In this document: piece by piece, positions 9,396-61,515 of the stretch
Layout of the letters: each line of letters begins with the position of its first letter
How positions within the stretch are numbered: the stretch's first letter is position 1
NCBI GenBank assembly: GCA_000004695.1
Contig: CM000155.2
Location: 2,976,001-3,040,000, forward strand
Direction of reading: 5' to 3'
Length of the DNA: 64,000 bases
DNA from: Dictyostelium discoideum
Taxonomy: Eukaryota
Notes under the pieces: model-generated
What the model was told of the DNA's origin: nothing
The model's database searches: none
What the model saw: only the letters and a program-made list of their open reading frames with translations
Position numbers and translations under genes: made by a program

Positions 9396-9468
9396 GCCCG
9401 GCTAGCTCAGTCGGTAGAGCGCCAGACTCTTAATCTGGTGGTCGGGGGTTCGAGCCCCCCGTTGGGCG
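9396..9468 (+). tRNA. tRNA-Lys (anticodon CUU)
   Basis: GCCCGGCTAGCTCAGTCGGTAGAGCGCCAGACTCTTAATCTGGTGGTCGGGGGTTCGAGCCCCCCGTTGGGCG is 73 nt. It has a canonical A box (TAGCTCAGTCGG) and B box (GGTTCGAGCC), a CTCTTAA anticodon loop, and 7-bp acceptor pairing. It is near-identical to animal tRNA-Lys-CTT. Confidence 0.9.
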
Positions 9469-9502
9469 AAATTTTTAACTCGATTCCTACAAGGATCGCA
9501 AG

Positions 9503-9526
9503 TTCGATTCTATATAAATTTTCAGA
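9503..9526 (+). promoter_or_regulatory. ex-B box (extra downstream B-box copy) of tRNA-Lys
   Basis: GGATCGCAAGTTCGATTCTATATA lies about 35-58 nt 3' of the tRNA. It repeats the B-box core GTTCGA. The same GTTCGATTC-TATA motif follows tRNA-Asp at 32572-32582. Confidence 0.5.
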
Positions 9527-9529
9527 TTT

Positions 9530-10170
9530 GGGTTATAAAAATAATTGTATATGGAGATTAAAAAAATCCTCAATCCTCTCAAGCATAATGCTTAAGAAAA
9601 TAGACTTCCTACTTAACGATTATTCAAGGGAGCTGTCATCCAACCATAACTCTATTTCCTTCTCTCAACTCAACAGCTTACTAAACAAAATAAAACAACT
9701 ATACACAGAATTTCAAAAACAAAATGACTACAACAATAAGGCAAACATCAAAAATCTAATCTCCCTACTAGAGACAGAATTTAAAGACCAAGCCTTCGCA
9801 ACCCTTTCAGCAATAAATGAATCTAAAAAAAGAGAAGAACAACTTAAACAAGAATTGAACAACTATTGCGAAGAAACCTCACTCAAGTACATCTCCGCGA
9901 GAATCAAGAAAAGACACAATGATTTCACCATCAACGCAGTAAAAGATGCACAAGGTAGAACAATCAACAAACAGGAATTGATCGAAGAAGATTACGTAAA
10001 ATATTACTCAAATCTTTATGACTACAAAGAAGATGACGCACCATCTCATTATGAAATGTTGGAAAATTGGACAGTGACCAGGGACTCAACATGGGACAAC
10101 CTTGAAAATGAATTCACAACCCAAGGAGATCCCTAGAAGTAATAAAACCAATTGGAACCCCACACCAAAT
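9530..10170 (+). mobile_element. 5'-truncated non-LTR retrotransposon fragment (ORF2 region between the EN and RT domains), tRNA-gene-targeted TRE family, about 70 bp downstream of tRNA-Lys
   Basis: The sense strand is A-rich, C-containing and GT-poor, like the TRE5-A ORFs at 33.7 kb. It translates to ...TINKQELIEEDYVKYYSNLYDYKEDD..., resembling the L1-type ORF2 'xxFYxxLY' linker between the EN and RT domains. Track ORF 9363..10136 runs through the tRNA and is an artefact. The element is cut off by the N gap. Confidence 0.5.
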
Positions 10171-14986: not shown

Positions 14987-17900
14987 TTATTTATTATTAT
15001 TATTTTTATCGATTTTTGATTTTAAAACATCAATATAATTATTATAAGACTTCATCATTAAATCCTGTATCTTTTGATCAGCATCCAATCTTTGATTCTG
15101 AAGTTGTTCAATTTGCTGTAATAAATTATTTGAGGAAAATGGTTCATTACTACTACTACTATTATTATTATTATTATTATTAAAATAAAATGGTGAAGAT
15201 CTAATTGGTGTTGAATTTGCCGATCTTGATCTTGTTGTAGTATATTGGTGTTGTTGTTGTTGTTGTTGTTGTTGATGTAAATAATCTGATGATGAAAATG
15301 GTATTGATTGTTGATTATTATTATAATAACTTTGATATCTAATACTTGAAGTTGAAGAAGGATATTGGTAATAGGTATTATAATTATCATTTAATCTTAC
15401 TGGTGTTAATCTATTAGTATTAAATGCTATTGGTTGTTGCTGTTGTTGTTGTTGTTGTTGTTGGTATGGTGGTAATAAAACTGTAGTTGGTTTAATTGGT
15501 GTTGTTTTCTTTAAAAAGTTTTCAATTTCATTTAAATCTTTTTCATTTTCTTTTAATATTTTATCAATTTCATCATCATCATGATCATCGTCATCTTTCT
15601 CTCCATCTTTACTTCTTAATAATACTCTTTTCTTTGATGCAGATGATGTATTTTGTTGTTTTTGTTGTTGTTTTTTAGTATTTGAAGAGGTAGTAGTACT
15701 AGTAGTAGTAGTAGTATTATTATTATTATTTGAATTATAAAATAATCGTGGCTCAAATTCATCATCATGATTATCAAATAATTCATCATTTGTATATCTA
15801 CTATAACCACTATTAACAGTTGTTGTATTTGAAGTACCTGAAGAATATCTTCCATTTGGTGTAAAAGATTGTTTCTTTCTCTTTGAAGATGGTGGATTTG
15901 ATATTAATTTTGGTGGTGATGGAGGTGGTGAAATATTTACATTATTACTATTACTATTATTATTATTGATATTATTACTGTTATTATTACTGTTATTATT
16001 ATTATTTGATAATTGTTGTTGTAATTGTAATAATTGTTTTTGTAAATATTCTTTTTCATTTGTAATTTGTGTAATTGAATTTTGTAAATTTAGCATTGTT
16101 AATTCTTGTTGATGTTGTTGTTGTTGTTGTTGATTTTGATCATATTGTTGTTGATTTTGATGTTGTTCATCAATTAAAACAACATTTTGATGTTGTTGTT
16201 GTTGGTCAATATTTAAATTAATTTTATTTAATTTATTAATTAAATCTAAATTTTCAAATTGAATTAATTCTAATTGATGTTTATGATCTTCATTTGATTG
16301 ATAAAGATTATCATATTCTTGTTTAATATTTGAAAGTAATGATTCAGTCCTTTGTTTCTCTAAATCAATATAATTTTGTTTCTCTTTAATTAAATCCATT
16401 AAATATTGTTGATGTTTTTCAACTTTATCCAATTGTTTATCAACCTCTACTAGTATGGATTGAATATCTTCCTTTAGATAACGATCTTGATATTCTCTAT
16501 CCTTTTCAACGATATCTAAATATTCATTGACTTGTTTCATCTTTTCAGTATACTGATCACGAGATCTAGTTAAATCATCGAATAAACTCTTATTCTCAAT
16601 ACCAAGTATATCCAACTCTTGATTCTTTATTTGTACAACCTCTTTAATCTCTTTAACTTTAACTCTACTCTTTTCTTCAACAATTAATTCATTAATTATT
16701 GTCTCTAACCATGTTAAATTCTTTTGTAAATTTAAAATATTTTCATTACTATCATCATTATTATCATCTTGATTTTCATCTTGATTTTCATCATTATCAT
16801 TATCATTAATTTTTTGTTCTTTTAATAATTGATTTAATTTCATTTGAACGAAATCAGTATTTTTAGTATTAATAATATTTGAAGATAATAAAGAATTTAG
16901 TAGTGAATGAATATCATTATTAATAGTATGAATGAATTGTGATAGATGAGAATTTGATTGTTTCAATTCAATCAATTGATCATTGTATAGATTTGATTGT
17001 GATTGTGATTGACTATTCAATTGTTCAAGATTACTAATTTCTTGACGATAAGTTTCAAGTAACTGTTCAAATTGTTGTTGTTGTTCACTATATTGTTGTT
17101 GTTGTTCAATAGATAATTGTAATTGATGTTGTTCGAATTCCATCTGATATTGAGTTTTAATTTGTTGATTATATTTCTCAATCTCTTTTTCAATCTCTTT
17201 TTCAAATTGTTTCTCAAATTTCAATTTTAATTCCTTTTCTAATGATTCTAAATCTTTCTTTTCATTTGATAAATTTGATCGTAATTGATTTCTCTCTTTT
17301 TCAAATTCAATTTCAAATTCTTTTTCAATTATTAATTTTTGATTCTCCAATTCTTTTTCAAAATCTTGTCTTTGTCTCTCCAATTCAATTTCAAATTCTT
17401 GTCTTTGTTGATCAAATTGTAATTTAAAGTCTTGTTCAAATTCTTGTTGATAAATTTCAAATTCTTCTTTTGTAATAAATTCTTCTTTTTCTTCTTCTTC
17501 CTCTTCCTCTTCTTGTTCTGATTCACTTGAATTTAATATTATTGAATCTTGATCATCACCACTATGTAATATAATTGAATCATTATCATCTTCATTTGTA
17601 TTTGAACTATTATTAGTATTAGTATTATTATCATCATTTAATATAATTTCATCATCTAATTCAATGATTGAATTTCTAATATTATCTTTTTCTTCATCAT
17701 CTTCATCAGGGTGATATTGAACACTATCATTATCAGAATTATCAATACTTTCTTCACCATGATCATCTTCTGATTCACTTGAATTAATTATCACTTCATC
17801 ATCTAATTCACCAAATTCATCACAAAATTCTTCATCTTCTTCTTCTTCTTCTTCTTCTTCATCTTCATCTTCATCTTCTTGGTTATTATTATTGTTAATT

Positions 17901-20239
17901 GAATTGTTTGCTGTAGTTGTAGTTGTAGTTGTTGTTGATGTTGTATTTTTATTATTATTATTAGTATTAGTATTATTTGTTGTTGTTGTTGAATTATCAG
18001 ATTTTGAATTTTCAAATAATTGATTACTATTTATATTATAATCAGGTTGAATTGGTGAAGAAATATTATCTTTAATGAATTGATATTGTTCATCATTTAA
18101 AGATAAAGTTTTAGTATGAATACCATCATTTGAATAGATTACATTTTGATTGAAATGAACTTGTTTCTTTTTTAATGATGATAATCTTTGATCTGGATCA
18201 TAATCTGAATTGATAGATAATGAATCTTTACTAATACCAATTTCATTTAACATTTGCTTATAGTGTGGTGAAATATCGTATAATTGAACCAAAACATCTT
18301 TAGCAATACAAAGATCTCTTTTAATCTGTTGGAAATTCTCTAAAATAGATTCATAATCTTTAATAACAATCTCTTGTCTATCTCTATCATCAATTAAACT
18401 TTGATTTGAATTCATCACTGTAACATATTCAAATTGTAATTTTCTCATATCTGCAATCTCTTTTAATTTTCTTTCATACCTTTTCTTTAATTCTTCATAT
18501 GAAATATCATTTTCATTTGGACTTGAATAAATTGATTGTTGTTGAGTTTGTTGTTGTTGTTGTTGTTGAGTTTGTTGAGTTTGTTGTTGTTTTTGTTTAG
18601 ATTCACCATTTGAAATTATACCACTACCATCAGAATTTAAAGATAAATTATTATCAGTTATATTTTGAATGATCATATCCAATGAAGAAGATGATGAATT
18701 CTCTCTATGATGAGTTTTTCTTTTAATTGGACTACCAGTTATAGAAGAAGAGGTTGCATTACTTAATGCAGTGGCTTGTTGTTGTTGTAATTGTTGTAAT
18801 TGAGTGATTTGTAATTGTAATTCTTTAATTTGATGTTGTAAATCATTAATTTTCTCAATCTTTTCATCATTCTCTTTAATTAATAATTGAATTTCATTTG
18901 AAAATTGTTGATTCTCTTGTTTCGATAATTCTAATAATTCATTAACCATATCTAATTCTTCATTATTATTATTATTATTATTAGTGGTAGTGGTAGTAGT
19001 AGTAGTATTAATTTGTTTATCAATTAATTCTTGTTCTTTTTGTTTCAATTGTTGATTTAATTGTTTAATTTGTTCTAATAGTTGATTAATTGTTGATTGT
19101 TTTAATTGTAAATCATTCATTGATTCTTTATATTGTTGATCTAATGATTGATATAGATTCATAATTTCATCAGTTTGATTGAATGATTGTTGATATTCTT
19201 CCAATTGTAATTGATATTTATTTATGGTTTCTTTATTTTCTAGTTTCGATTGTTGATATTCATTTTCAAGTTTTTCAAGTTCACCTTTAATTTCAATTTC
19301 CTTTTGTTCATATTGATTATAATTCTCACAAAGTTCATTATAATTTGTTAACAACTCTTGATAACTTGATGATAATTGATTGATTTGATTTGATTTCTTT
19401 GTATTATCAACTTCTTGTTTCTTTAATTCTTGAATTGTTTCATCCAATTTCTTTAAATTCTCTTTTTCAATTAATTTCAATTCATTAATTTGTTGATTGA
19501 ATTTATTATTAATTTCTTCTAGTTCTTTAATTTTATTAATTTGTTGTTGTTCATTATTACTATTATTATTATTATTTTGTTGTTGCTCTTGTTTTAATTG
19601 TTCATTTTCAGATTTAATTTGTTGATATAATTTTTCAAATTCTTTAAAGTCTGAAGTTAAAGATTCCAATTCCTCAATTTGAGTATTTTGTTCCTTTATG
19701 ATTTGTTCAGATTCAAATAATTGTGAATTTAATACTTCAATTTCATTTGATAATTGATCGATTTGTTCTTGATTCTTTGAAATACTTTCATTATGAATGA
19801 TTTGTAATTCTTGAAGTTTTTGTTTAATTAAAGTTTTTTTTTTTTTTAATAATTCATTCGACTCAACCAATTCAATAGTATAATTTCTTTCTTTTTCTAA
19901 ATGTTCTTCTAATTGTTTAATTTGAATTAATTGTTTATTATATTCAATTTCAAAATTATTATTATTTTCATCTAATTTTTCATTTTCTTTATTATTATTA
20001 TTATTATTATTATTATCAATATTTAATGATTTTAATTCTAAATTATCTTTTTCTAATAAATCAATTTTATTTTGTTTATTATTTAATTCTTCTTCGAAAT
20101 GTTGTTTTGTATAATTTAATTGTTTTTCTAATCTTTCATTCTTTGTTTTGTATTCTATTGATTTGGATTTCTCTTCTTTTAATTCCTCTATTAATTTGGT
20201 TTTACTTTGATTTAATTCCATTATTGTTTCAAAATTACT
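14987..20239 (-). CDS. giant coiled-coil protein, main exon (about 1750 codons), rich in polyN, polyQ and Glu/Lys heptads
   Basis: The ORF is 5.2 kb on the minus strand, which random 80%-AT DNA cannot sustain. It has myosin-tail/SMC-like heptad periodicity throughout. An in-frame 18-nt extension upstream of the first Met leads to an AG acceptor at 20240-41. Confidence 0.6.
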   Translation of the reverse strand, partial: SNFETIMELNQSKTKLIEELKEEKSKSIEYKTKNERLEKQLNYTKQHFEEELNNKQNKIDLLEKDNLELKSLNIDNNNNNNNNKENEKLDENNNNFEIEYNKQLIQIKQLEEHLEKERNYTIELVESNELLKKKKTLIKQKLQELQIIHNESISKNQEQIDQLSNEIEVLNSQLFESEQIIKEQNTQIEELESLTSDFKEFEKLYQQIKSENEQLKQEQQQNNNNNSNNEQQQINKIKELEEINNKFNQQINELKLIEKENLKKLDETIQELKKQEVDNTKKSNQINQLSSSYQELLTNYNELCENYNQYEQKEIEIKGELEKLENEYQQSKLENKETINKYQLQLEEYQQSFNQTDEIMNLYQSLDQQYKESMNDLQLKQSTINQLLEQIKQLNQQLKQKEQELIDKQINTTTTTTTTNNNNNNNEELDMVNELLELSKQENQQFSNEIQLLIKENDEKIEKINDLQHQIKELQLQITQLQQLQQQQATALSNATSSSITGSPIKRKTHHRENSSSSSLDMIIQNITDNNLSLNSDGSGIISNGESKQKQQQTQQTQQQQQQQTQQQSIYSSPNENDISYEELKKRYERKLKEIADMRKLQFEYVTVMNSNQSLIDDRDRQEIVIKDYESILENFQQIKRDLCIAKDVLVQLYDISPHYKQMLNEIGISKDSLSINSDYDPDQRLSSLKKKQVHFNQNVIYSNDGIHTKTLSLNDEQYQFIKDNISSPIQPDYNINSNQLFENSKSDNSTTTTNNTNTNNNNKNTTSTTTTTTTTANNSINNNNNQEDEDEDEEEEEEEEDEEFCDEFGELDDEVIINSSESEDDHGEESIDNSDNDSVQYHPDEDDEEKDNIRNSIIELDDEIILNDDNNTNTNNSSNTNEDDNDSIILHSGDDQDSIILNSSESEQEEEEEEEEKEEFITKEEFEIYQQEFEQDFKLQFDQQRQEFEIELERQRQDFEKELENQKLIIEKEFEIEFEKERNQLRSNLSNEKKDLESLEKELKLKFEKQFEKEIEKEIEKYNQQIKTQYQMEFEQHQLQLSIEQQQQYSEQQQQFEQLLETYRQEISNLEQLNSQSQSQSNLYNDQLIELKQSNSHLSQFIHTINNDIHSLLNSLLSSNIINTKNTDFVQMKLNQLLKEQKINDNDNDENQDENQDDNNDDSNENILNLQKNLTWLETIINELIVEEKSRVKVKEIKEVVQIKNQELDILGIENKSLFDDLTRSRDQYTEKMKQVNEYLDIVEKDREYQDRYLKEDIQSILVEVDKQLDKVEKHQQYLMDLIKEKQNYIDLEKQRTESLLSNIKQEYDNLYQSNEDHKHQLELIQFENLDLINKLNKINLNIDQQQQHQNVVLIDEQHQNQQQYDQNQQQQQQHQQELTMLNLQNSITQITNEKEYLQKQLLQLQQQLSNNNNNSNNNSNNINNNNSNSNNVNISPPPSPPKLISNPPSSKRKKQSFTPNGRYSSGTSNTTTVNSGYSRYTNDELFDNHDDEFEPRLFYNSNNNNNTTTTTSTTTSSNTKKQQQKQQNTSSASKKRVLLRSKDGEKDDDDHDDDEIDKILKENEKDLNEIENFLKKTTPIKPTTVLLPPYQQQQQQQQQQPIAFNTNRLTPVRLNDNYNTYYQYPSSTSSIRYQSYYNNNQQSIPFSSSDYLHQQQQQQQQHQYTTTRSRSANSTPIRSSPFYFNNNNNNNSSSSNEPFSSNNLLQQIEQLQNQRLDADQKIQDLMMKSYNNYIDVLKSKIDKNNNNK

Positions 20240-32582: not shown

Positions 32583-32609
32583 CGATCTATTTTTTGTTTT
32601 TGGTAAAAG

Positions 32610-32681
32610 CTCCCTGTCCGGGAATTGAACCCGGGCCTTTCGCGTGACAGGCGAAAATCCTCACCACTAGACCAACAAGGA
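32610..32681 (-). tRNA. tRNA-Asp (anticodon GUC)
   Basis: The reverse complement is TCCTTGTTGGTCTAGTGGTGAGGATTTTCGCCTGTCACGCGAAAGGCCCGGGTTCAATTCCCGGACAGGGAG, 72 nt. It has an A box (TGGTCTAGTGG), a B box (GGTTCAATTCC), a CCTGTCACG anticodon loop and acceptor pairing with one G-U. It is very close to the universal eukaryotic tRNA-Asp. Confidence 0.9.
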
Positions 32682-33711: not shown

Positions 33712-35046
33712 ATGAAAATCACAAACAACACCACAAATATTAAGCAACACAAATGCCTACAAAAAATAAGCGAAATTGTGGATAAAACTCAATTAAAAAA
33801 AAAACAATTCAAATACGTCATAAACATCAATCACGAACCAGACGATAAAATAAAAAAAGATTTAGAAAAAAGTTTGGACAAAAAAGATGTTTTAATCAAA
33901 AGTAATAATACATTCAAAATTCTCACAGACAGTATTAGTACAGTAATCTATTTTGTAAATATGTTTGATGCAGAATTAAAAGGACAATTTATAACCACTA
34001 TAAGACCAAAAAATATGTATACAGATTTTGATTGGTATAAATCACTCACAGAAATAGAATGGGTAATAGAAAATGAAGGATGTAAACTAATTAAATCAGA
34101 AATTAAAGGCGAAACTCTAATTATCAAAACAGTGAAAAGAGTCGTAGAAGAATTTGACACTATCATTGAACTAGACAATCTAACATTAATTGGACACTCC
34201 AACAAAGGATGGAGAGATCAAACCTCATTACCAGAAAATCAAGAAGAAAACAAAAATAAAAAACAATCAGATGAACAACAACCACAATCTACATCAGAAC
34301 AAATACCAAAACAAGGAAAAAGAACAATCATTATCCCACCAATCACATCCTCATCTAATGATAAAACATTTATGGCCCTAGATGATACAGCTCAAAAGGT
34401 AATAGAAGCATCACTAGAAAACGTAGATGAACTAACAAGAATAGAGAATGAGATCAATACACAATCGATAAACAATCAAGAAATTAAAACAAAATCAGAA
34501 AAACCTATCGAACCACCATCTCCATACAATACACCAATAAAACAACACGGCGAAACAAAGGGACTAACAACGGAAGAAAAACTTAGAGAGGCAAATGATA
34601 TCTTCGACTTCACCAGCCCAAACACTGATGCAATAAGAAAAATAGAATTCCCACTTTCAATCCCTTCAAATCAATGGTTCTTCTCCTCTCCAATAAAACA
34701 TATCATGAGTTTCAGCCCAACCTATGGTACACCATCGAAAATTATCGATTCACCAAGTAAATTGTTAAACACACCAAAAAAGAAACAACAAGACAAAACA
34801 AACAAGACCAACAAAACACCAGTCAAACCAAAATTGGGTGAATATGGACAAAAAAGCATAAAAACAAAAATGGATGAAGATATAGACAACTTCAACAAGG
34901 AAATTCTAAAACAAATCAATAAATCAAAAAACCCCACAAACACACAAGACCAACAACACAATGAACAAAGTAAAGATCAGTTAGAAGACAAAATAAACCA
35001 GAAACTTCAAAAGGTAGATAAAAATCTACCCCAAATAAAACTATAA
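33712..35046 (+). CDS. TRE5-A ORF1 protein (444 aa)
   Basis: A long ORF with A-rich sense-strand codon usage, typical of Dictyostelium TRE elements. It lies immediately 3' of the B-module array. Its 5' end is duplicated at 35400..35640. Confidence 0.65.
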   Translation: MKITNNTTNIKQHKCLQKISEIVDKTQLKKKQFKYVININHEPDDKIKKDLEKSLDKKDVLIKSNNTFKILTDSISTVIYFVNMFDAELKGQFITTIRPKNMYTDFDWYKSLTEIEWVIENEGCKLIKSEIKGETLIIKTVKRVVEEFDTIIELDNLTLIGHSNKGWRDQTSLPENQEENKNKKQSDEQQPQSTSEQIPKQGKRTIIIPPITSSSNDKTFMALDDTAQKVIEASLENVDELTRIENEINTQSINNQEIKTKSEKPIEPPSPYNTPIKQHGETKGLTTEEKLREANDIFDFTSPNTDAIRKIEFPLSIPSNQWFFSSPIKHIMSFSPTYGTPSKIIDSPSKLLNTPKKKQQDKTNKTNKTPVKPKLGEYGQKSIKTKMDEDIDNFNKEILKQINKSKNPTNTQDQQHNEQSKDQLEDKINQKLQKVDKNLPQIKL

Positions 35047-46549: not shown

Positions 46550-49500
46550 TTGCAAATCAAAACAATAAGAATGTCATTTTTTAACAATGATTTTAAAATA
46601 GATAGAATTAATAATAGTAATAATTATGAAAAATCATTTTGGAAAATTATTAGTAATTTTTATCTATTAAAATTAATTTTTAATAAAATTAATGATACAG
46701 AGTGGATAAAATTTGAAAATCCAAAACAAATCAATCATTTTAAAAATAGAAAAAAGTTTAAAGATATTACATCTTTAAAATGGATGTTAAAAAAAAAATT
46801 ATTCTCATTATTAAAACTTAAAATCAATAACAATGACGAGTTTATTAATATTGATAAACATTCGATTTATGAATTATTTCGATCATTATCATTGACTCCA
46901 AACTCTATTAATGTTTTAGATAATACTATTCATGGTAATAATGATGAAGAAAATTTCATTGAAACTCAAGAGAATTGGATATATAATGATCTTGAAGCAC
47001 AATATGATCAACCAAAATCCATTGTAGAATATAATGAAAATGATATTATTCAAATTAAAGAAATATTAAATTTATTATTAAATAAGAGAAGGAATGAATT
47101 TGAAATTTGTGATTTAACAAATGCAGCGATTAATTGCAATAGTTTATATGTTTTGAAGTTATTAATTAGTGAACCATATTATATTGATGTTATTCCATCA
47201 TCGATTTTATTGGCATATAGAAAATGTGACCCAATTATTATTTTAGAATTATTTAAATTTAATAAATCAATTTTTTCATTTTATGAAATTAAAATTCACT
47301 CTTTGGAACAATCAAGTAAAAATAAATACAATTCTTTAGAAATGGTTAAATTTATCTTAGAAAATGATTATTTATATAAATTAAATGAAATTGAAAAACA
47401 ATCACCATCATCATATATATCATTATTTTTTATTGAAATTTCACATAGGAAATTAAAAGTTGAAAATGTTTTAAAATTAAAATGTTTAAAAACTATTAAA
47501 ATTTTAATGGAATTAAATTTAATTGAACCATCAACATTTGTTGATAATTCAATTTTTGATGTATTAAATTTTAATAATACTTTTGAAGAATCAAAAACAA
47601 TTTTGTTGTTTTGTTTAAAGTATTTCCCAAAATTAAAAAATGATAAAGAAATCAAAAAAAAACTAGAAAACATTTTAGAAAATGATTGTGATAATTTAAA
47701 AGAATTACAAACGTTGATTATAATAAATTTACATCCTTTAAATTTATATAGACAATACATCAAGAATTATCAAGAATCAATAGATGAATGTCATTTAGAT
47801 GGTTTAGTTTCAAATGATTATGATATGGAATCCAATAAATTTATTACCTTTTATAGATTATCCACTTTACTTTCTTTTGGGGGTCAAAAAATATTTAATC
47901 TTTTTAAATTGGATAACGCAAGAAATTTATTATTAACAGAAAAAGATATTAAAAAAAGTAATATAAAATTTCATCCTTTATTATTTGATTCATATGATTC
48001 ATCAAAACTTTTAATTGATAATATATCAGTAGTAGAGTGGTTAATCGATAATAATATGATGTTAAGGGTACTCAATTCAAACATGATTTCTATTAAATTT
48101 AAATCTTTTGATTTTGGATTATCCTGCTTTTTAAATTATGAAGTATTAAGAAATTTAAAAAGAAGTTTAATATTTGAACAATTTTTAAAGGATTTCTTTT
48201 TCTCATCAATCGAAAATGGATCAATTAATATATTGAAAAAAATAAGTAATATCGTTCGAGAATATATCAATGTATCTCAATTTTATAGTACAATAGAGCT
48301 TTTTTTACCAAATGATATATATATTTCCTTAGAGGTGTTTAATTATTTCAATGAAAATGGTTTTAATGGTTTTAGGGATCAATTACTATATAAATTTTTA
48401 AAACTATCTATTGATAAACATCCATCATTAAAAAAGGTTAAAATAAATCATAATCTAATTGGTTTATATGACTTAATCCTTTTTTTCCCAAAAGATTTAA
48501 ATTTAGTTAAATTATTTCTTAATAATATTGACAAATTAAAAGAAGATAATCCAATTCAAGAGTTAGATAATAATATATACAATCAATATTTTGATTTAGT
48601 CCAAAACAATTTCAAAACAAAGCAATTGGTTTCAATTATTAAATTAATTATCTCAAAGTTTAATAACAATTCAAATGTACATATTTTAAATCATTATTTT
48701 AATCTCTTGATAAGAAATTATGGTGTAACTATTGAAACTATTAAAACAATACAAGATCTACTGTTTGAAAATTCAATTGTTATTGAAAATTCTACAATTC
48801 GTACATTCTATTACCTAAATGCTAGATCCCCAAAATTTACGAAATTAATACTCACAGGAATTAAATCATATTGGCTTTGTTTAGGAACGGATCAAATTAA
48901 ATCAATTGAAATTTATATTAGTAATTTCAATTATAAATATTTAACTGAACAACAAGAAATTTATGGAAATCAAAAATTTAAAAATTCATTTGATATAATT
49001 TTAAAAGAGTTAATTTCAAATATTATTTTTAAAAAATTTAAAACTAATCCAAATATTGAAATAAGAGAATTTGAAAGATTAACTAAACCTCTTTTAATAT
49101 ACTTTTTAAAAATTGGAAGAAGAGATTTATTTTTAGAAAATTATCAATGGTTTAAAATGATGTTATATAAACATTTAAATAATTTAAGTATTTTAGAACT
49201 AATTGCGGAATGTACCTCATCAATTTTATCTCCATCAGTTCCTTCGAATGGTAATCTTAAATTATTAAACTCAATATCACCAATTTTTAGAACCAATTAT
49301 TTCAATGACAGTTTTAAATTTAAAAAACCAAATGATTTTGATTTGAATTTGTTTTTTAAATCTTGTAGCCAATATGAACTTTCTATAGTATTAGAAAATT
49401 ATTTCAATTCAAATAGTTTCCTTTCAAAGGCTTTATTTGAATCATTTGATTTTAATAACATTGATAATTTAAAGTTTTTAATTGAAAATTATAATAATCA

Positions 49501-50227
49501 CATTCAATTAATTGGTTTATTTGATTATAAAAAATCATGTTTTCTATCTTTAAAATTTATTTTAAATAATTTCCCACAAAAATTTTATAATCATATTATA
49601 ATACCAATTGAAATTCAAAAGGAATCATTAAATGATTTAGAATTTTCTGATAATTTTTTAAACTACATTTATATTTATTTCAGCAATAATGTAGATTCAT
49701 TAAAATTTTTAAATTCAGAAAATGGTAAAATAAATCAATTCATTCAAGAATTAATAATTAAAATTAGGGAATTAATAACAACAAATAAATTATTTTTAAT
49801 TGAAAAAACTGATCAATCAAAACAACAAAAATCAGATAAAAATAATGAAATTAAATCAATAATCGAACAAAAAGATATTAAAGAATTACTATTATCAAAT
49901 TTAAATAATTATTTAGAAATTAGAGATTCACAAAGGAATTTAAAAAAAAGTGAATTTGAAATTAAATATTTAAATGATGATAATAATTTATTTATTCAAT
50001 CATTTATAAATGGTGATATTAAACAATGTGAATTGTTACTACTTCATTTTAAAAACTTTATTTTAACAAAATCTTCAATAACAAAAACAATTATAAATAA
50101 TAATATTTTTATAATTAAATATTTTTATCATAAACTTATAAAAATTAATTTAATTTTATTAAATTATTTAAAATCACAATTATTACAAAATTATGACTAT
50201 AAATATAATTTAAATTGGTTAGAATAA
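46550..50227 (+). CDS. large Asn/Ile/Leu/Lys-rich hypothetical protein (1225 aa), lineage-specific
   Basis: An uninterrupted 3.7-kb ORF in roughly 80% AT DNA. There are no recognisable domains. The likely initiator is the Met at about 46571 (MSFFNNDF...). Confidence 0.5.
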   Translation: MQIKTIRMSFFNNDFKIDRINNSNNYEKSFWKIISNFYLLKLIFNKINDTEWIKFENPKQINHFKNRKKFKDITSLKWMLKKKLFSLLKLKINNNDEFINIDKHSIYELFRSLSLTPNSINVLDNTIHGNNDEENFIETQENWIYNDLEAQYDQPKSIVEYNENDIIQIKEILNLLLNKRRNEFEICDLTNAAINCNSLYVLKLLISEPYYIDVIPSSILLAYRKCDPIIILELFKFNKSIFSFYEIKIHSLEQSSKNKYNSLEMVKFILENDYLYKLNEIEKQSPSSYISLFFIEISHRKLKVENVLKLKCLKTIKILMELNLIEPSTFVDNSIFDVLNFNNTFEESKTILLFCLKYFPKLKNDKEIKKKLENILENDCDNLKELQTLIIINLHPLNLYRQYIKNYQESIDECHLDGLVSNDYDMESNKFITFYRLSTLLSFGGQKIFNLFKLDNARNLLLTEKDIKKSNIKFHPLLFDSYDSSKLLIDNISVVEWLIDNNMMLRVLNSNMISIKFKSFDFGLSCFLNYEVLRNLKRSLIFEQFLKDFFFSSIENGSINILKKISNIVREYINVSQFYSTIELFLPNDIYISLEVFNYFNENGFNGFRDQLLYKFLKLSIDKHPSLKKVKINHNLIGLYDLILFFPKDLNLVKLFLNNIDKLKEDNPIQELDNNIYNQYFDLVQNNFKTKQLVSIIKLIISKFNNNSNVHILNHYFNLLIRNYGVTIETIKTIQDLLFENSIVIENSTIRTFYYLNARSPKFTKLILTGIKSYWLCLGTDQIKSIEIYISNFNYKYLTEQQEIYGNQKFKNSFDIILKELISNIIFKKFKTNPNIEIREFERLTKPLLIYFLKIGRRDLFLENYQWFKMMLYKHLNNLSILELIAECTSSILSPSVPSNGNLKLLNSISPIFRTNYFNDSFKFKKPNDFDLNLFFKSCSQYELSIVLENYFNSNSFLSKALFESFDFNNIDNLKFLIENYNNHIQLIGLFDYKKSCFLSLKFILNNFPQKFYNHIIIPIEIQKESLNDLEFSDNFLNYIYIYFSNNVDSLKFLNSENGKINQFIQELIIKIRELITTNKLFLIEKTDQSKQQKSDKNNEIKSIIEQKDIKELLLSNLNNYLEIRDSQRNLKKSEFEIKYLNDDNNLFIQSFINGDIKQCELLLLHFKNFILTKSSITKTIINNNIFIIKYFYHKLIKINLILLNYLKSQLLQNYDYKYNLNWLE

Positions 50228-50374: not shown

Positions 50375-50380
<6 letters not shown>

Positions 50381-51620
50381 AAAAGAACCATCAAAACCAC
50401 TAAAACCTGATAATAAAAATATTGGATAATAAGGTTTCTTTGCGATTTGAGCAGACCATTGCCAAGCAGAAGTTAATCTACCATCAATACAAGAGCCAGC
50501 ATCGAAAAAGTTATCGGCACCACTACCATCGAAAGCGTGTTTAAAGAAATCACAAAGGATGATTTTGGTTAAAGTTTGTGGACCACCAAAGGTGTTTTTG
50601 ATGTAAGCAACTAAATTTGGATCGGTGATCTTTGGAATATATTCAATGGTTAAAACGATTGGACTTAGGATTCTAGAGATTTGAGTGTATTTATCGATGA
50701 AAACCAAAGAGTTTGGAACGTTATGATCACCCAAATGAATAACGGAAGAACCAACCCAATCATCACCAACTTTTTTTTGAGTTTGACGTAGAATACTATG
50801 CATAATTTTACCAACGTTTGGACATTGTTGAATACGATTTAGACCTTGACCAGTGTTTGATAATTGATATCTGTGTCCGCATAAAAGATCAATTTCTGCA
50901 AAGTACCAAAGTTTAAACATATCATGAAGAATATGTTGCCACAAGGAGAGTGATTGATATACATAGTTATATTGTTTACGATGATTGTGAGAAAGACGTG
51001 CACCACCAATGCCATGTTCCAAAGCCAATGAAAAACCTCTCTCTGATTGATTTGGACTAAAGTATTCCTTGAGGAGATGTTTCATTTTCTTGACTGGATC
51101 ACGATTCTCCCTAAGGAATGTATGATTATCACAGATGGAGTAAATACAAACCTCAATCTCCTCTGATTTCAACATTGATGATGAGTAACGACGTGATAAT
51201 GTTTTGATTGCATGTTCCTTTTCACGAATTTCACGTTGAATTTGAGGTCTGGTTTTATTCTCTGCTAAAACCTCACGAGTTGCCAATTCTAACAATGGAT
51301 CCTCTAACAATTTGAGTCCGTTACGTTCATCCAAAAACAAGAAAACGGTTTTCAATGGTTTAATCATATTAAGTCCACTAAGATTTTTCTTTACATCTTC
51401 ATCTGCTGCATCTTGTAATAAATGAATCATTTTACCATATTCAGTTCTCATCTTTGCTGGATTCATAATCTTGTGTCTTCTACCAATTTCAAAAACATTT
51501 TGAAAGAATTCTTCATTTTCAAAGAAATCTTTATTTTCAACTAATTGTTGACCTTTTTTAAAATCACTTTTTTTTTAAAATAATAAAATAAATAAAATTA
51601 GTTTTGAAAATTTATAAATT

Positions 51621-51652
<32 letters not shown>

Positions 51653-52618
51653 TTATAATTACCTTGCAACCAATAAACCTGATAAAATTGCACACATACC
51701 TCTTAATTGATCATTTATTCTTTTTGATTTTGAACCACCAACATGAATGATATCGATTTTATCTGTATATTCTGAAACGTGAAGTGCTGCCTCTAAAAGA
51801 CGAAGATCATTTCTCTCACGAATATTTAAACGAATTGGAATATATTTAGATCTTTCTGTGAACCAATCCTTTGAAAGTCTTGGAATAAAATCTGTAAAAT
51901 TTTCATTCTTGTGAATGAATTTCTCCTCGTCCTCATCAATCTCTTCATCTTCATCTTTATGGTGATTATTGATTTGATGATTATTAGAACCCCCACCATT
52001 ACGTTGTTGATTAGTATGATGAAAAGGTAATGGATTGAGTAAATTACTAGTGCCTCTATACATACTATTTATACTGTTAATGTTGTTGTTGTTGTTATTA
52101 ATACTTTTATTATCATCCATTTCAATGTTGTTAGTGTTGTTGGTATTATTATTGTTGTTGTTGTTGTTTTGAACTTTTTCATCTTCTTTGCCATGTAATG
52201 GAGGTTGACGATCACGTTTATTTAATTCATCATAATCAAGTTCTTGACCATGTTTATTTTTAAAAATATGTGACCTACGTGAACCTCTTCTATGGAGTGA
52301 CTAAAATTTTTTTGAAAAAAAAAAAAAATATATTTTAAATATTAGACTTTTTTTCTTTTAATTTTTCTTTTTTGTATTTTTCTTTTTTTTTTTTTTTTTT
52401 TTATATATACATACAGTTGAACAAACTGTACAAAGTTCATCTTGACATTGCAAACATACAACTTCAGCTGGTTGATCTGTACATTCACAGCACATACCTG
52501 GAGTTTCTTCATCTTCACTCATAGATTCAAATTTACGATTGGTTGAGTCATCTTCTTCTATATCTATATCATCAAGGTCGTTATCCAAAACTTTTGTTAA
52601 TTTATTTTGTTTTGACAT
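50375..52618 (-). CDS. conserved eukaryotic protein with N-terminal B-box-like Cys cluster (3 exons: 52618..52415, 52300..51663, 51566..50375; about 677 aa)
   Basis: Exon A is MSKQNKLTKVLDND...GMCCECTDQPAEVVCLQCQDELCTVCST|GTATGT (7 Cys, zinc-finger-like). Exon B follows TTTTAG| and includes track ORF 51659..52120, ending ...LLVA with AG|GTAATT in phase 2. Exon C begins AAAAG|T, completing a Ser codon, then [45 protein letters not shown]... This is track ORF 50375..51466 extended in frame upstream of its Met. Confidence 0.55.
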
Positions 52619-52980
52619 TTCTATAATAAATAATAAATAAAAAAAAAAAAAAGGTTTAGTGGTGTGGAAAAAAAAAAAAAAAAAATGGAAATTAGATATT
52701 TGGATCAACAACAAAAAAAAAAAAAAAAAAAATTTTTGAAAAAATAAAAAAAATTGGAAAAAAGAAAAAATAAAGAAAGTTGAACTTGAAGGGGGTGAAA
52801 ATAATAAATGTTTACTACAAAAAACATTAACCATATCCCTAAAATTTTCTTTTTTTTTTTTTTCTTTCTTATTTTACTTTTTTTTTTTACTTTTTTTTTT
52901 TACTTTTTTTTTTGTTTTTTTTTTTTTTTTTTTTGAAACCAATGATTTAAATATACTAATGTTATTTTTTTAATTTTTTA

Positions 52981-53752: not shown

Positions 53753-56700
53753 TTATTTTGACCAAATTACTGGATGTTTTTGATTTGTTTGATTCATGAA
53801 TTGAGTTTGAGAATCTTCATCAATTGGAGAAGAACGTTTTTTATAACGACCATCAGATAACATTTCCCAAGCGTTTGAATCATTACAATAAACATTTATA
53901 ATTTCATAGAGTTGTTTGATGTTATTAGCATCGTCAACAGGAACCATTACTTCGACACGACGTTTAAGATTACGATGTAACCAATCGGCTGATGCAATAT
54001 AAGCTTTTGGTTTGCCATTATTATGGAAACAATAGATTCTTGAATGTTCAAGGAAACGACCAAGAATTGAGATGACTTTAATATTTTCACTGATACCTTT
54101 AATTCCTGGAAGTATTCTACAACGACCTCTAACGACTAGAGTGATTTTCACACCTGCTATACTTGCTTGGTAGAGGGCATTGACCAATCTCTTATCATCC
54201 AAACCATTCATGACGGCATTGATAGTTGCGTCTTTACCTTCTCTGGCGTTCTTTGCCTCGTTATCGATCAATTGGATTAAAGTGGATCTCATATTCATTG
54301 GAGCGATTAAAAGTTTCTTAAAGGAGGATACACGGCTATAGCCAGTGAGGTAGTTGAAAAGGTTGCACATATCTTCACCTAGGTCAGGGTCACAACTGAA
54401 TAGACAAATATCGGCATAGACGTCAGAGGTGCTTGCATTGTAGTTACCAGTGGAGATATTTAAATACTCTCTTAGACCATTCTCCTCCTCACGTACGACC
54501 ATTGCGATTTTAGCATGAGTTTTCAAACCAACCAAACCATAACTTACATGACAACCAGCTTGTTCCAAAAGACGGGCGAATTTTGTATTTTGTTCTTCGT
54601 CACCAGATGCCTTCAAATCCACCAAGACCATAACCTCCTTATGAGAGGCAGCCTCGCAAAGTGCACGAATCAATTGAGAATTTGAGTTTGTTCTATAGAT
54701 TGCGATTTTGATTGCCAATACTTTTGGATCCTTAACTGCACTTTCAATAAAGAATTGAACAGAAGAATTGAAGCTTAGATAAGGTAAATTCACCAATAGC
54801 TCACCTTTTCTAATGACAGAAAAGACGTCCTCTGATGGATATTTTGCCAAGTTTACTAATCTACTTGGGATGTGGGGTACCCAAGGTTGGAATTTGAGAT
54901 GTGGTAAGTTTAATTTACAAAGTTCAAAGAGATCTTGTAAACCCAATGGACCATTGATGACGTAGACATCATAGGCATCCAATGCCAATTGTGTCTTTAA
55001 CATATCCAATATCTCTGCGGGCATATTATGACTGACCTCTAATCTAACCATTGGTGCAAACTTTCTCTTATGTAATTCGGTTTTAATTAATTCCAAAAGA
55101 TCATTTGCCTGATCCTCTCCACTAAGCTTCAAATCATTGTGACGTGATACACGGAACAATGACTTTGTCAAGATTTTAGTGTTTGGGAAGAGTGTATCCA
55201 AATTTGCCAATATTATCTCCTCCATTGGTATGATTGAATAGTTGGAACGTTGTTTAATATGTACAAAACGTGGGATTCTTTGAGGCACTTTAATACGTAC
55301 GAATCTGGTGGTATCTTCGTCATGTTTCAAAAGGACCGCTATGTTCAATGAGAGATTACTAAGATTAGGGAATGGATGACCTGCATCGACCACCAATGGT
55401 GTCATCAATGGGAAAACATGTTGTAAAAAGAAACCACGTAATTGAATTTTCTCTGGTTCTGTTAAATCGGAATACTTTATAATGAATACATTATTATTTG
55501 AAAGTTCTGGTGCTAATATATTCATATAGATATTATAAATCTCATTGATTAAATTTCTTGTTGTATTCAATACCATATTAATATAATGTTCCTCTGGTTT
55601 CAATGTTTTTCTAGTAGAAATATAACCTAATCTTAACTTTAATGCACGTTTACAAAAATACATATCCAAATTTTGTGATGTAATTGCAATGAATCTAACA
55701 CGTTCTAATATTGGATAAGTTGGATTATATGCTTCATAAAGTATACGATAAAAGTAAATTAATTCTGATAATTCCCTATTAAAAAACATTCTTGAACCAC
55801 TTAATTGTAAAACTTTAATATCAATTGGTATTTCTGATTCTGGTATACTTTGTTGTTGTTGTTGTTGCTGTTCTGCTAAACTACCATTACCATTTGGAAT
55901 TATTGATGATGATGATAATCCTGAAATTAAGGGTGAAGTTGAACCATCACCACCTGATGAAAATGGTTTACCAATCATTGTTGATGATTTAAAATCATTG
56001 TTATTATTATTATTTGTATTTTGAATTAAATTATTAAATAAATTATCAACATCTAAAATTGTATGTTTTACAGATGGTACAATGAAATTATTTTCACTAT
56101 CAACTATATCTTGACAATAGGATGGATCTGGTAAGACATTTGCTAATGGTGGTGCATCCCATGAATTTAATGATGTAAATTTAGATTTTGTTGAATCTGA
56201 ATTACAATTACCATTACTATTACTATTACTATTATTATTATTACTACTACTACTACTACTACTACCACTACTAATGTCATTTTTCAAAGGTTCGGAAATT
56301 GGTTGTGGATTTTGAACAGTTAGGACATTTGATGTACCTAATTCACTTAAACCTAACATTGATGATAATTTAATTGGTTGAACTGGTGATTTTGATGGAT
56401 TCACTGTTGATGATTTTACAAATTCAGTTGGTGAGAATAATGTACCAGATTCCATTAATTGACAATTTTGAACTGGATTTGCTGTGGTTTCTTTATTTTT
56501 AGATTTTGATTTTGATTTTGATGATTTTGATGATGATTTTGATGAACGTTTCTTTTTTTTATCATTTGGATTTGGAATTAATTTACCATTGCCACCATTT
56601 GATTCTGCTGCTGAATCTTCATCTTCTTCATCAAATGATGATGATTCTTCATCATAATCATCTTCGAAATCAACTGGACATTCTTGTGATATTTTATATC

Positions 56701-56914
56701 TATGTAATTCCATTGCTGCTGTTGATGATGATGATCCAGTATGTTCATCATCACTTTCTTCACCACTTGTTGAAGTAGTTGTTGTAGTAGTGGTAGTGGT
56801 GGAGGTGGTGGTGGTGGTTGATTCTTTATTATTACTATTAATTTTGAGTTTATTTAATTCTTCTTCATCAAATTCATCTAATATTTTATTTTCCATTTTT
56901 GAGTTAGTTATCAT
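53753..56914 (-). CDS. ppk1: polyphosphate kinase 1 (bacterial-type PPK1) with about 370-aa low-complexity N-terminal extension, 1053 aa
   Basis: The C-terminal ~680 aa are collinear with bacterial PPK1. Examples are ...FFNRELSELIYFYRIL..., ...DLKASGDEEQNTKFARLLEQAGCHVSYGLVGLKTHAKIAMVVREE... (the autophosphorylated His region), and ...ISILGRFLEHSRIYCFHNNGKPKAYIASADWLHRNLKRRVEV... (the PLD-like C2 domain). The N-terminus is Thr/Ser/Asn-rich and eukaryote-like. GC content is higher than the surroundings. Dictyostelium is known to carry PPK1. Confidence 0.9.
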   Translation of the reverse strand: MITNSKMENKILDEFDEEELNKLKINSNNKESTTTTTSTTTTTTTTTSTSGEESDDEHTGSSSSTAAMELHRYKISQECPVDFEDDYDEESSSFDEEDEDSAAESNGGNGKLIPNPNDKKKKRSSKSSSKSSKSKSKSKNKETTANPVQNCQLMESGTLFSPTEFVKSSTVNPSKSPVQPIKLSSMLGLSELGTSNVLTVQNPQPISEPLKNDISSGSSSSSSSNNNNSNSNSNGNCNSDSTKSKFTSLNSWDAPPLANVLPDPSYCQDIVDSENNFIVPSVKHTILDVDNLFNNLIQNTNNNNNNDFKSSTMIGKPFSSGGDGSTSPLISGLSSSSIIPNGNGSLAEQQQQQQQSIPESEIPIDIKVLQLSGSRMFFNRELSELIYFYRILYEAYNPTYPILERVRFIAITSQNLDMYFCKRALKLRLGYISTRKTLKPEEHYINMVLNTTRNLINEIYNIYMNILAPELSNNNVFIIKYSDLTEPEKIQLRGFFLQHVFPLMTPLVVDAGHPFPNLSNLSLNIAVLLKHDEDTTRFVRIKVPQRIPRFVHIKQRSNYSIIPMEEIILANLDTLFPNTKILTKSLFRVSRHNDLKLSGEDQANDLLELIKTELHKRKFAPMVRLEVSHNMPAEILDMLKTQLALDAYDVYVINGPLGLQDLFELCKLNLPHLKFQPWVPHIPSRLVNLAKYPSEDVFSVIRKGELLVNLPYLSFNSSVQFFIESAVKDPKVLAIKIAIYRTNSNSQLIRALCEAASHKEVMVLVDLKASGDEEQNTKFARLLEQAGCHVSYGLVGLKTHAKIAMVVREEENGLREYLNISTGNYNASTSDVYADICLFSCDPDLGEDMCNLFNYLTGYSRVSSFKKLLIAPMNMRSTLIQLIDNEAKNAREGKDATINAVMNGLDDKRLVNALYQASIAGVKITLVVRGRCRILPGIKGISENIKVISILGRFLEHSRIYCFHNNGKPKAYIASADWLHRNLKRRVEVMVPVDDANNIKQLYEIINVYCNDSNAWEMLSDGRYKKRSSPIDEDSQTQFMNQTNQKHPVIWSK

Positions 56915-59801: not shown

Positions 59802-61200
59802 ATGTCACCCAATGATGTTGAACAACAGCAGCTACCAACCCAAAATAACAACTATAATGATAATATAAATAGTCCATCATTAAATGATGATGATGAGGAT
59901 TCATTTTTTAGAGAAATTAAAGAAATTAGCAGAGGTAGACCAAAAACTAGAGATGAAATTCAAATAAGTGATAGAACAAGACTATCAAGATGGGATACAC
60001 CTTTAACAAATGATGGGGTTTCACCTTTTTCAAGTATTTTTAAAACCCTACCACCTGGTTTAACTGATGAACAAATTGCTGCTTTAATTTGTAAGTAAAA
60101 AAAAAAAAACCTATTACACACACACACAATTATAATAACTTTTTTTTTTTTTTTTTTTTTTTTTATGAATAATTTTGAAGTAAGATTAAGAGTTGATGAA
60201 ATTACAAAGAAAATTACAATTGGACCAATTGAATTTACAGAGAGAGATAGAGAGAGATCACCATCACCACCACCAACTTATGATAATAATGGTAAGAGAT
60301 CAAATACAAGGGAACAGAGAATTAAGGAAAAGCTACAAAAGGAGAGACATCAATTGGTTGTAACAGCACAACAAATCAATCCAACCTATAAACCACCATC
60401 AGATTATCAACCACCAAATGAGAAGAAAACTAGAAAGATCTACATCCCAATAAAGAATCATCCAGAATATAATTTCATTGGTTTAATCATCGGACCACGT
60501 GGTAACACACAAAAACGTATGGAGAAAGAGTCTGGTGCAAAAATTGCTATCAGGGGTAAAGGTTCATCACGTGATGGCAAACCAACCAAACTTCAATTTC
60601 AAGAGAATGATGAGTTACACGTTCTCCTAACTGCAGACACTGTTGATCAATTGGATAAGGCGGAAGTGTTGGTTAGAGAGTTTTTAATACCAGTTGAGGA
60701 GGGTAAGAATGAACATAAACGTCAACAACTTCGTGAATTGGCTGAAATGAATGGTACACTTAGAGAACGTCCTGCTTACATGGGTAATCGTAGTTGGACA
60801 CCTGTCGATATAAAATGTGTTCAATGTGGTGAAACTAGTCATCCTTCCTCTGATTGTCCATTACGTTCGAATGAATCAAATCAACAATATATCGAATCTG
60901 AATATCAAAAATTCATTGATGAAATGTCTAAATCTTTAGGTTTTGATATTAGTATTTCTCCAAATCAAAATGATAATTCTTTACAAAATATAAATTTAAA
61001 TAATAATAATAACAATAGTAATGGTAATAATAATGGAAATAATAATGGACGTAATTTTAATAATGATACTGTTGGTGATATGGATGAATCACCTCCACAT
61101 CATACTCAATCACACTTTCAACAAAATTCACCTCAATTTGATCAACAACAACACCAACAACAATGGAATAATAATAACAATAACAACAACAATAACAATC

Positions 61201-61267
<67 letters not shown>

Positions 61268-61515
61268 TAATAATAACAATAATAATAACTTTTCAAATTA
61301 TAATGTAAATATATTTTCAAACATTAGAAAAAGAAAACTATAAATGAATAATTACTAATACCCAATTTTGTTTTTATTTTTCTACAAAAAAAAAAAAAAA
61401 ACTATTAACTAAATAATTTTAGAATAATAATCAATCTTTTTACAATAATAATAACTCACCATATGGCCCTCCAAATGGTGGTTCTCCTTATGGTCCACCA
61501 AGAAATACGTACTAA
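59802..61515 (+). CDS. sf1: splicing factor 1 / branchpoint-binding protein (KH domain plus CCHC zinc knuckle) (exons 59802..60090, 60181..61304 or ..61343, and probably 61423..61515)
   Basis: Exon 1 ends ...[10 protein letters not shown] at T|GTAAGT (phase 1). After GAAG| comes [12 protein letters not shown]...[22 protein letters not shown]...[45 protein letters not shown] (KH)...[15 protein letters not shown] (zinc knuckle). These match human SF1 block for block. A polyN tail follows. A GTAAAT donor at 61305 and AG at 61421-22 would add a Pro-rich terminal exon [30 protein letters not shown]. Confidence 0.75.

Follow-up and report, generated by a model that had tools for sequence, protein, structure and literature searches.

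The 64-kb window analysed here, the whole stretch of 64,000 nucleotides from Dictyostelium discoideum, carries on its minus strand an uninterrupted open reading frame (ORF) of 1053 amino acids, ATG to stop (53753..56914), which encodes a polyphosphate kinase of the bacterial PPK1 type and is referred to below as ppk1. Translation starts at Met1 or Met7, a six-codon uncertainty, and the ortholog of D. firmibasis keeps both ATGs. Pfam matched all four PPK1 domains in order, each with near-complete profile coverage and with E-values between 8e-21 and 1e-66, behind a long N-terminal extension. The gene and its parts are as follows.

53753..56914, minus strand: ppk1 coding sequence, 1053 codons plus stop (stop codon 53753..53755), a single exon collinear with the single-exon D. 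firmibasis ortholog
55811..56914, minus strand: N-terminal extension, residues 1-368, rich in Ser, Asn and Thr and mostly predicted to be disordered
55481..55786, minus strand: PP_kinase_N domain (PF13089), residues 377-478, from Pfam
54920..55450, minus strand: PP_kinase middle or 'head' domain (PF02503), residues 489-665, from Pfam
54332..54829, minus strand: PP_kinase_C_1, PLD-like (PF17941), residues 696-861, from Pfam; includes GLKTHAK at 54509..54529 and H800 at 54515..54517
53807..54313, minus strand: PP_kinase_C (C2), PLD-like (PF13090), residues 868-1036, from Pfam; includes RFLEHSR at 54038..54058 and H957 at 54044..54046

The protein belongs to the PPK1 family by each of the criteria tested: domains, equivalog score and histidines. 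Over residues 377-1040, the NCBIfam model TIGR03705 ('polyphosphate kinase 1') scored 698.9 bits, well clear of its cut-off of 465.85, and the subfamily model NF003921 scored 803 against a cut-off of 701. The best match among solved structures is Escherichia coli PPK (1xdo; E 8.6e-97, query residues 375-1013). In the alignment with the E. coli enzyme, H800 of GLKTHAK falls on the histidine of GLKIHAK, and H957 of RFLEHSR on that of RYLEHDR, the second conserved histidine; both are invariant in an alignment of 49 sequences. In the literature numbering, the autophosphorylated histidine of E. coli C1 is H435 and the conserved histidine of C2 is H592. On sequence evidence, then, the catalytic part (residues ~369-1046, the C-terminal ~685 residues) is confirmed as a complete four-domain bacterial-type PPK1 with both catalytic histidines, and the PPK1 module, histidine region and PLD-like domains described in an earlier note on this DNA are borne out.

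The predicted activity is ATP-dependent polyphosphate synthesis. By homology with E. coli PPK1, ATP would phosphorylate the C1 histidine, H800, and the phosphate would then be passed processively to the growing polyphosphate chain in a reversible reaction, a chemistry read across from the bacterial enzyme. E. coli PPK1 (1XDO/1XDP) has the same four-domain layout and the same histidine motifs, GLK(I/T)HAK and R(Y/F)LEH(D/S)R, but no counterpart of the 368-residue amoeba extension, and the amoeba gene is nuclear with host codon usage. The catalytic core is under purifying selection relative to D. firmibasis: only 8 of 450 residues differ, while 28-38% of the codons for identical residues differ synonymously.

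Around ppk1, some 20 kb are syntenic with D. firmibasis (72-83% DNA identity, same gene order), and the catalytic parts of the two orthologous proteins are 98% identical. Because the organism is D. discoideum and because of this synteny and orthology, we infer that the gene is the nuclear ppk1 of D. discoideum (DdPPK1, UniProt Q54BM7), and the match to the published Dictyostelium PPK1 that had been proposed is thus supported. DdPPK1 from the same organism has been described before (Zhang et al. 2005/2007; Livermore et al. 2016) and is listed as Q54BM7, without introns, in Table 2 of PMC3680246. Ppk1 makes the polyphosphate of Dictyostelium, and ppk1-null cells have no detectable intracellular polyphosphate (PMC10056890, PMC8885430). 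Dictyostelium Ppk1 is the textbook bacterial polyphosphate kinase at work in a eukaryote, and studies of polyphosphate as a signal of density and starvation build on it. The locus is almost certainly this real, functional, well-studied and already known gene. What we add is modest: a Caldilineae-type bacterial neighbourhood, a sister group of PPK1-NUDIX eukaryotes, ancestral introns and an unexplained local codon shift.

The N-terminal extension was examined by composition, alignment and structure prediction. Residues 1-368 contain 19.6% Ser, 11.4% Asn and 8.4% Thr, and Ser, Thr, Asn and Gln together make up 43% of the extension against 21% of the catalytic part, in keeping with the Ser/Thr/Asn/Gln-rich terminus of ~370 residues already claimed for it. 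Its description as low complexity holds insofar as it is rich in Ser, Asn and Thr and mostly disordered, but it is not merely so, since short motifs are conserved among dictyostelids. No Pfam family matched residues 1-368. At a threshold of at least 7 of 8 aligned dictyostelid sequences, the conserved elements include the motif EESDDEHT at residues ~52-59 and an acidic block at residues 68-100. Longer conserved stretches are listed here.

56297..56440, minus strand: conserved island LFSPTEFVKS ... LG.S.LG.SN.L..QNPQ.I, residues 159-206, in at least 7 of 8 dictyostelids, predicted to be disordered
56030..56155, minus strand: conserved island APP..NVLPDP.YC...D..NFIVPS....ILD.DNLF., residues 254-295, from the alignment; overlaps the one stretch of the extension for which order is predicted
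55790..55837, minus strand: conserved lead-in to the PPK N domain, EIP.D.K.LQLSGSR, residues 360-375, from the alignment

The island at residues 254-295 is partly recognisable in the protosporangiid Clastostelium. An AlphaFold2 model of the window protein has a mean predicted local distance difference test score (pLDDT) of 67.3 and a predicted template modelling score (pTM) of 0.70. Residues 1-268 and 302-355 are predicted to be disordered (pLDDT <50). Residues ~269-301 are modelled at moderate confidence (pLDDT 60-73), with helices at 264-270 and 295-305 and a strand at 277-279, and a helix at 364-373 leads into the N domain (pLDDT 54-78). The extension is an amoebozoan addition that consists mostly of a disordered, low-complexity linker with short dictyostelid-conserved motifs and one ordered island at ~269-301. 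Its motifs most plausibly mediate localisation, oligomerisation or regulation. The ~370 residues ahead of the PPK1 module presumably correspond to the extension that Zhang et al. 2007 described for DdPPK1, which is reportedly required for activity and localisation. The conserved motifs within the disordered extension are concrete targets for dissecting why it is needed.

Bacterial representatives of ~1050-1078 amino acids with N-termini of ~370-390 residues were considered as relatives of the extension and rejected, since these are fusions to CYTH, GNAT or DUF4956 domains. A CYTH-like N-terminus is common to many bacterial PPK1s of ~1050-1078 amino acids (P0157, P0162, P0176, P0183, P0199 and others). 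Pfam identified CYTH in P0157, a GNAT acetyltransferase in P0134, and DUF4956 together with CYTH in P0237, an arrangement reminiscent of eukaryotic VTC components. Yeast and trypanosomatid VTC4 has the same output as PPK1, polyphosphate made from ATP in a eukaryote (PMC8885430), but its fold and mechanism are unrelated: VTC4 is a tunnel enzyme of the CYTH/TTM type under the control of an SPX domain. A Pfam scan of the window PPK1 found no CYTH/TTM or SPX domain.

We searched for homologs by a word-indexed search and by an exhaustive HMMER search of 1.84 billion representatives, which returned 16,141 matches; the two agree. Orthologs are present in D. purpureum, P. violaceum, T. lacteum, C. fasciculata and A. 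subglobosum, and identity among dictyostelids is 65-98%. The next relative, P0008, comes from Clastostelium recurvatum, a protosporangiid eumycetozoan (61-63% identity), and all other sequences are at or below 50%. Across 5.8 billion sequences, the only Amoebozoa with matches above ~49% identity are Dictyostelia and Clastostelium. Other eukaryotic PPK1s come from red-type and green-lineage algae and a few further eukaryotic contigs. The distribution among eukaryotes is therefore patchy, and PMC3680246 lists the same few PPK1-bearing eukaryotes. Since the gene is present in Clastostelium, ppk1 predates Dictyostelia and was acquired before they split from Protosporangiida.

The top bacterial matches are metagenome-assembled genomes of Caldilineaceae/Chloroflexota, with 46-50% identity over 95-99% of the catalytic part. 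Their PPK1s (P0009, P0010, P0024 and P0087) score highest of all bacterial relatives, and every tree has them as the nearest group of bacteria. The genes around P0010, on a contig of 1.73 Mb, are of bacterial type. These enzymes have N-termini of their own ahead of the catalytic module (P0009; P0010, L089 6001..8484), which are not homologous to the amoeba extension, and the trees join them to green-lineage eukaryotic PPK1s rather than directly to those of amoebae. Cyanobacteria (44-45%) were the best named group among the contig-scan matches listed, which did not include the Caldilineaceae-type group, and are not the true nearest bacteria.

We then placed the amoeba enzymes in trees. In a Kimura neighbour-joining (NJ) tree, amoebozoan PPK1s form a clade with bootstrap 1.0, and with bootstrap 0.98 this clade joins P0139, P0148 (Galdieria phlegrea), P0168, P0188 (an MMETSP eukaryote), P0218, P0222 and P0251. 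The genes that neighbour P0251 and P0168 are eukaryotic. Raw distances showed a risk of long-branch attraction, so maximum-likelihood (ML) distances were built with a Gonnet-derived matrix, and the NJ topology was recovered at alpha values of 0.6, 1 and 100. There, the 16-taxon clade is sister to Caldilineaceae-type bacteria plus green-lineage eukaryotes (Mesostigma, Ostreococcus), with named cyanobacteria further out. In an ML placement scan, Amoebozoa are sister to the red-type group, the next-best placement being 15.6 log-likelihood (lnL) units worse. When the red-type group is left out, Amoebozoa attach to the green/Caldilineaceae-type stem.

Among optimised topologies, ((Amoebozoa, Red),(Green, Caldilineaceae-type)) was the best, with a resampled-likelihood bootstrap (RELL) proportion of 0.85. 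Monophyly of the eukaryotic sequences was not rejected (-8.1 lnL, z 1.2, RELL proportion 0.11), and any cyanobacterial sister was rejected (-70 to -133 lnL, z 3.5-4.9). Dayhoff-6 recoding kept the amoeba plus red-type grouping with bootstrap 0.90; composition bias does not appear to be its cause. As an explanation of this grouping, long-branch attraction or composition bias was set aside, although not by proof: the grouping held with Gamma-corrected ML distances, after either group had been dropped, in ML placement and under recoding.

The sister group is distinctive. These red-algal-type PPK1-NUDIX proteins (P0148, P0168, P0188, P0218, P0222, P0251) group with amoebozoan PPK1 in the NJ, ML-distance, ML-placement and recoded analyses alike. 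They too have long N-terminal extensions, although dictyostelid motifs were not seen in them by eye, an inspection and not an alignment. Identity to amoeba PPK1 is only ~37-44%. The clade has a C-terminal NUDIX domain without counterpart in amoebae, identified by Pfam at residues 1118-1203 of P0168 (L088 349..4089); the other members have NUDIX-box-like tails. The fusion possibly joins the polyphosphate kinase to a (poly)phosphate or nucleotide hydrolase.

In these trees, the eukaryote-containing PPK1 assemblage is nested in bacterial diversity, among thousands of bacterial PPK1s and next to Caldilineaceae-type Chloroflexota. This supports horizontal acquisition of the family, as the earlier note had proposed; a bacterial origin of Ppk1 is already accepted (PMC10056890, PMC8885430). 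The transfer is nevertheless older than a dictyostelid-specific event, and less direct. That note had set a eukaryotic grouping of the catalytic domain against a place inside bacterial PPK1 diversity, and each is found at its own depth: the dictyostelid proteins group with Clastostelium and then with the Galdieria-type clade, while the assemblage as a whole lies among bacteria. Because the immediate sister of amoebozoan PPK1 is eukaryotic, the trees fix neither which lineage received the gene nor how many transfers took place. An analysis of 2013 found cyanobacteria closest to eukaryotic PPK1s (PMC3680246); the difference from our result presumably arises because Caldilineae-type genomes were not available then.

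The intron record of the gene was compared next. A single ORF collinear with the single-exon D. firmibasis gene bears out the claim that ppk1 is intronless, and the catalytic part lacks introns in D. discoideum, D. firmibasis and P. violaceum. Introns in the other orthologs were called where splicing at GT..AG boundaries gave an exact solution. A phase-0 intron after window residue 426 and a phase-2 intron after residue 479 are common to C. fasciculata and A. subglobosum, and D. purpureum and A. subglobosum share a phase-0 intron after residue 674. All are short (64-87 nt), and A. subglobosum ppk1 has ~7 introns. Their positions in the ortholog contigs are given below.

L002: 9720..9786, ortholog intron
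L004: 4690..4753 and 4915..5001, ortholog introns
L005: 4094..4163, 4322..4391 and 4969..5032, ortholog introns

That distant dictyostelids share both intron position and phase implies an intron-bearing ancestral ppk1, and the intronless state of the D. discoideum gene is a secondary, derived loss. The three shared introns speak against intron absence as a retained prokaryotic trait, and the reading of intronlessness as a sign of transfer falls with it.

Base composition leads to a similar result. The ppk1 ORF has a GC content of 0.329, while the window averages 0.224 and the flanking intergenic DNA has 0.11-0.18, so the gene is less AT-rich than its surroundings, as had been said; other ORFs, however, reach 0.30-0.36. 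Along ppk1, GC content at third codon positions (GC3) is 0.06-0.12 in the extension, 0.15 in the N domain, 0.30-0.48 at residues ~481-930 and 0.16-0.18 in the last 120 codons. Other long ORFs of the window have GC3 values of 0.07-0.25. The core tract thus stands above all of them and is listed as a feature.

54125..55474, minus strand: GC3 island, residues ~481-930, ~1.35 kb, GC3 0.30-0.48; relative to D. firmibasis a lineage-specific, codon-specific synonymous shift from A/T to G/C

The codons enriched in the island are TTC, ATC, AAC, GAC, GTC, TCC, GAG, AAG and TTG, while GGT, CGT, CCA and CAA remain dominant. Bacterial-style CTG, NCG, CGC, CGG, GGC and GGG codons account for just 2 of the 450 core codons. 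In register, the same bins have a GC3 of only 0.12-0.30 in D. firmibasis and 0.09-0.26 in D. purpureum. Synonymous third-position differences in the core number 96 with G/C in the window and A/T in D. firmibasis, against 15 in reverse; outside the core, the same comparison gives 25 against 44. Of the core sites with G/C in the window and A/T in D. firmibasis, 18% have G/C in D. purpureum. This is near the 14% seen where both have A/T and far from the 37% seen where both have G/C, and therefore most of the changes are derived in D. discoideum.

The shift is equally plain at the DNA level. Across the ~20 kb of synteny, the 500-bp bins from 54000 to 55500 have ratios of window-G/C to firmibasis-G/C differences of 40:6, 39:10 and 34:8 (113:24 in total), at a total DNA divergence of 0.11-0.12 that is not raised. 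Most other bins are close to 1:1 or lean the opposite way, with one clear outlier in the same direction at 56500-57000 (36:16). That excess lies at the 5' end of ppk1 and upstream of it, and may be an alignment effect of low-complexity repeats. An introgressed or foreign segment as the source of the island was rejected, because neither amino-acid nor total DNA divergence is raised there.

The GC3 island has no counterpart in D. firmibasis, uses host-preferred codons and is derived in D. discoideum, and for these reasons is a recent, host-type feature that arose in the D. discoideum lineage rather than a bacterial remnant still to be ameliorated. No residue of donor-like composition or codon usage was found in ppk1, whose GC3 outside the island (0.06-0.18) is neighbour-like. 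The view of the gene's composition as that of a partly adapted transfer does not hold up: compared with the flanking genes, the island does exceed the other ORFs, but in codons that the host prefers. Intronlessness and GC content, the classic footprints of horizontal gene transfer, are here recent features of the host lineage and not usable as evidence of transfer.

A tract of GC-biased gene conversion (gBGC) or a recombination hot spot, rather than codon selection, would account for a shift that is sharply local and contiguous over ~1.5 kb, that couples an excess of A/T to G/C changes with a deficit of the reverse at unraised divergence, and that leaves the equally conserved N domain and last 120 codons unaffected. 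The shift is codon-specific, however. Among opportunities in the island, NCA to NCG changed in 1 of 62, GGT to GGC plus CGT to CGC in 1 of 25, and GTA to GTG and AGA to AGG in 0 of 12 each, against 20-45% for T to C in TTY, ATY, AAY, GAY, GTY and CTY and for A to G in TTA, GAA and AAA. Moreover, a genome-wide study of D. discoideum reported that its highly expressed genes prefer C-ending codons and that evidence of gBGC was lacking (PMC8321536). We regard a conversion tract as fairly unlikely, though it is the most serious of the alternatives considered here. A direct transfer of a bacterial ppk1 into the dictyostelid lineage, since then partly ameliorated, would explain at a stroke the bacterial-type module, the lack of introns and a core GC3 above every other long ORF of the window. 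Yet the island is missing from D. firmibasis and D. purpureum, its codons are those of the host, the shared introns point to an intron-bearing ancestor, Clastostelium outside Dictyostelia has the gene and the nearest relatives beyond Amoebozoa are eukaryotic, all of which makes such a transfer very improbable.

A different history would have PPK1 ancestral to eukaryotes, or gained once very early, then inherited vertically in Amoebozoa and in the red-type and green lineages and lost in most others. All recognised eukaryotic PPK1s do lie in one neighbourhood with Caldilineaceae-type sequences, and the likelihood tests tolerate their monophyly; but the best tree pairs green-lineage PPK1s with Caldilineaceae-type bacteria, the distribution is extremely patchy, down to Dictyostelia and Clastostelium as the sole Amoebozoa above ~49% identity, and the red-type NUDIX fusion has no counterpart in amoebae. 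We consider this history unlikely, if less so than direct transfer. That the ORF stems from contaminating bacteria or from faulty assembly, as the bacterial-type domains of its catalytic part might suggest, is refuted because of synteny and the introns of its orthologs and has a negligible chance of being true: the ORF is set in AT-rich dictyostelid DNA, the D. firmibasis gene order is matched (DUF2009 downstream, SF1/BBP upstream), codon usage is that of the host, the orthologs have spliceosomal introns and the in-frame amoeba-type extension is conserved across dictyostelids.

We are highly confident that, overall, the locus is best explained as the known ppk1 of D. discoideum, a bacterial-type module with an amoebozoan extension, acquired long ago, whose intronlessness and GC-rich core are derived. 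In this account, the gene entered before Dictyostelia and Protosporangiida separated, its closest relatives outside Amoebozoa being Galdieria-type PPK1-NUDIX eukaryotes and its closest bacterial relatives Caldilineaceae-type Chloroflexota, not cyanobacteria. Later, in the D. discoideum lineage, ancestral introns were lost and the core shifted locally towards host-preferred C-ending codons.

More tentatively, and with somewhat less than even confidence, we suggest that amoebozoan PPK1 was not taken directly from bacterial prey. It may have a common origin with the red-algal-type PPK1-NUDIX clade, both deriving with green-lineage PPK1s from one or a few transfers from Caldilineae-like Chloroflexota, followed either by ancient vertical inheritance with losses on a massive scale or by transfer between eukaryotes; separately, a tract of ~1.35 kb in D. 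discoideum ppk1 shows recent, directional and codon-specific synonymous change, in a genome reported to lack gBGC. If true, the common origin revises the published view of a cyanobacterial donor: the probable donor neighbourhood moves from cyanobacteria to Caldilineae-type Chloroflexota, and amoebozoan ppk1 appears to share ancestry with other eukaryotic PPK1s.

Several points weigh against these conclusions. Topologies with Amoebozoa apart from the red-type group were only marginally worse (15-21 lnL units, z 1.75-2.2), and both eukaryotic groups are long-branched, so that residual long-branch attraction is possible. The likelihood tests come from our own small, site-homogeneous implementation (Gonnet-derived matrix with Gamma4, 30 taxa, fixed within-group topologies). 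Several red-type members are metagenomic sequences, of which the two checked have eukaryotic neighbours. Equivalence of the window protein to Q54BM7 was drawn from organism, synteny and orthology and not residue by residue, and the functional role of the extension leans on what Zhang et al. 2007 reportedly found.

The surroundings of ppk1 are orthologous to those in D. firmibasis. Downstream lies a DUF2009 gene, a non-canonical E2-like gene at 50375..51466 and 52358..52834 (both minus strand), whose upstream exon is of the B-box type (CCECT...C..C..C motif). Upstream lies a homologue of the splicing factor SF1/BBP at 60165..61343 (plus strand), and an SF1 gene is near ppk1 in D. purpureum too. 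Elsewhere in the window, neither a 1744-aa ORF at 14987..20221 (minus strand) nor a 1225-aa ORF at 46550..50227 (plus strand; GC only 0.185) had a Pfam match. The highest GC3 outside ppk1, 0.395, belongs to a mechanical 257-aa ORF at 9363..10136 (plus strand) that overlaps a tRNA-Lys(CTT) gene at 9395..9469 (plus strand) and is probably not a real protein gene. A 444-aa ORF at 33712..35046 (plus strand), for which Pfam gave no match, is identical to a D. discoideum AX4 protein encoded in many copies (DDB_G0269094, DDB_G0293692 and others; on at least 14 contigs), and this identity marks the window as D. discoideum DNA. Because it lies ~1 kb from a tRNA-Asp gene at 32609..32681 (minus strand), it is probably the ORF of a tRNA-gene-targeted retroelement.

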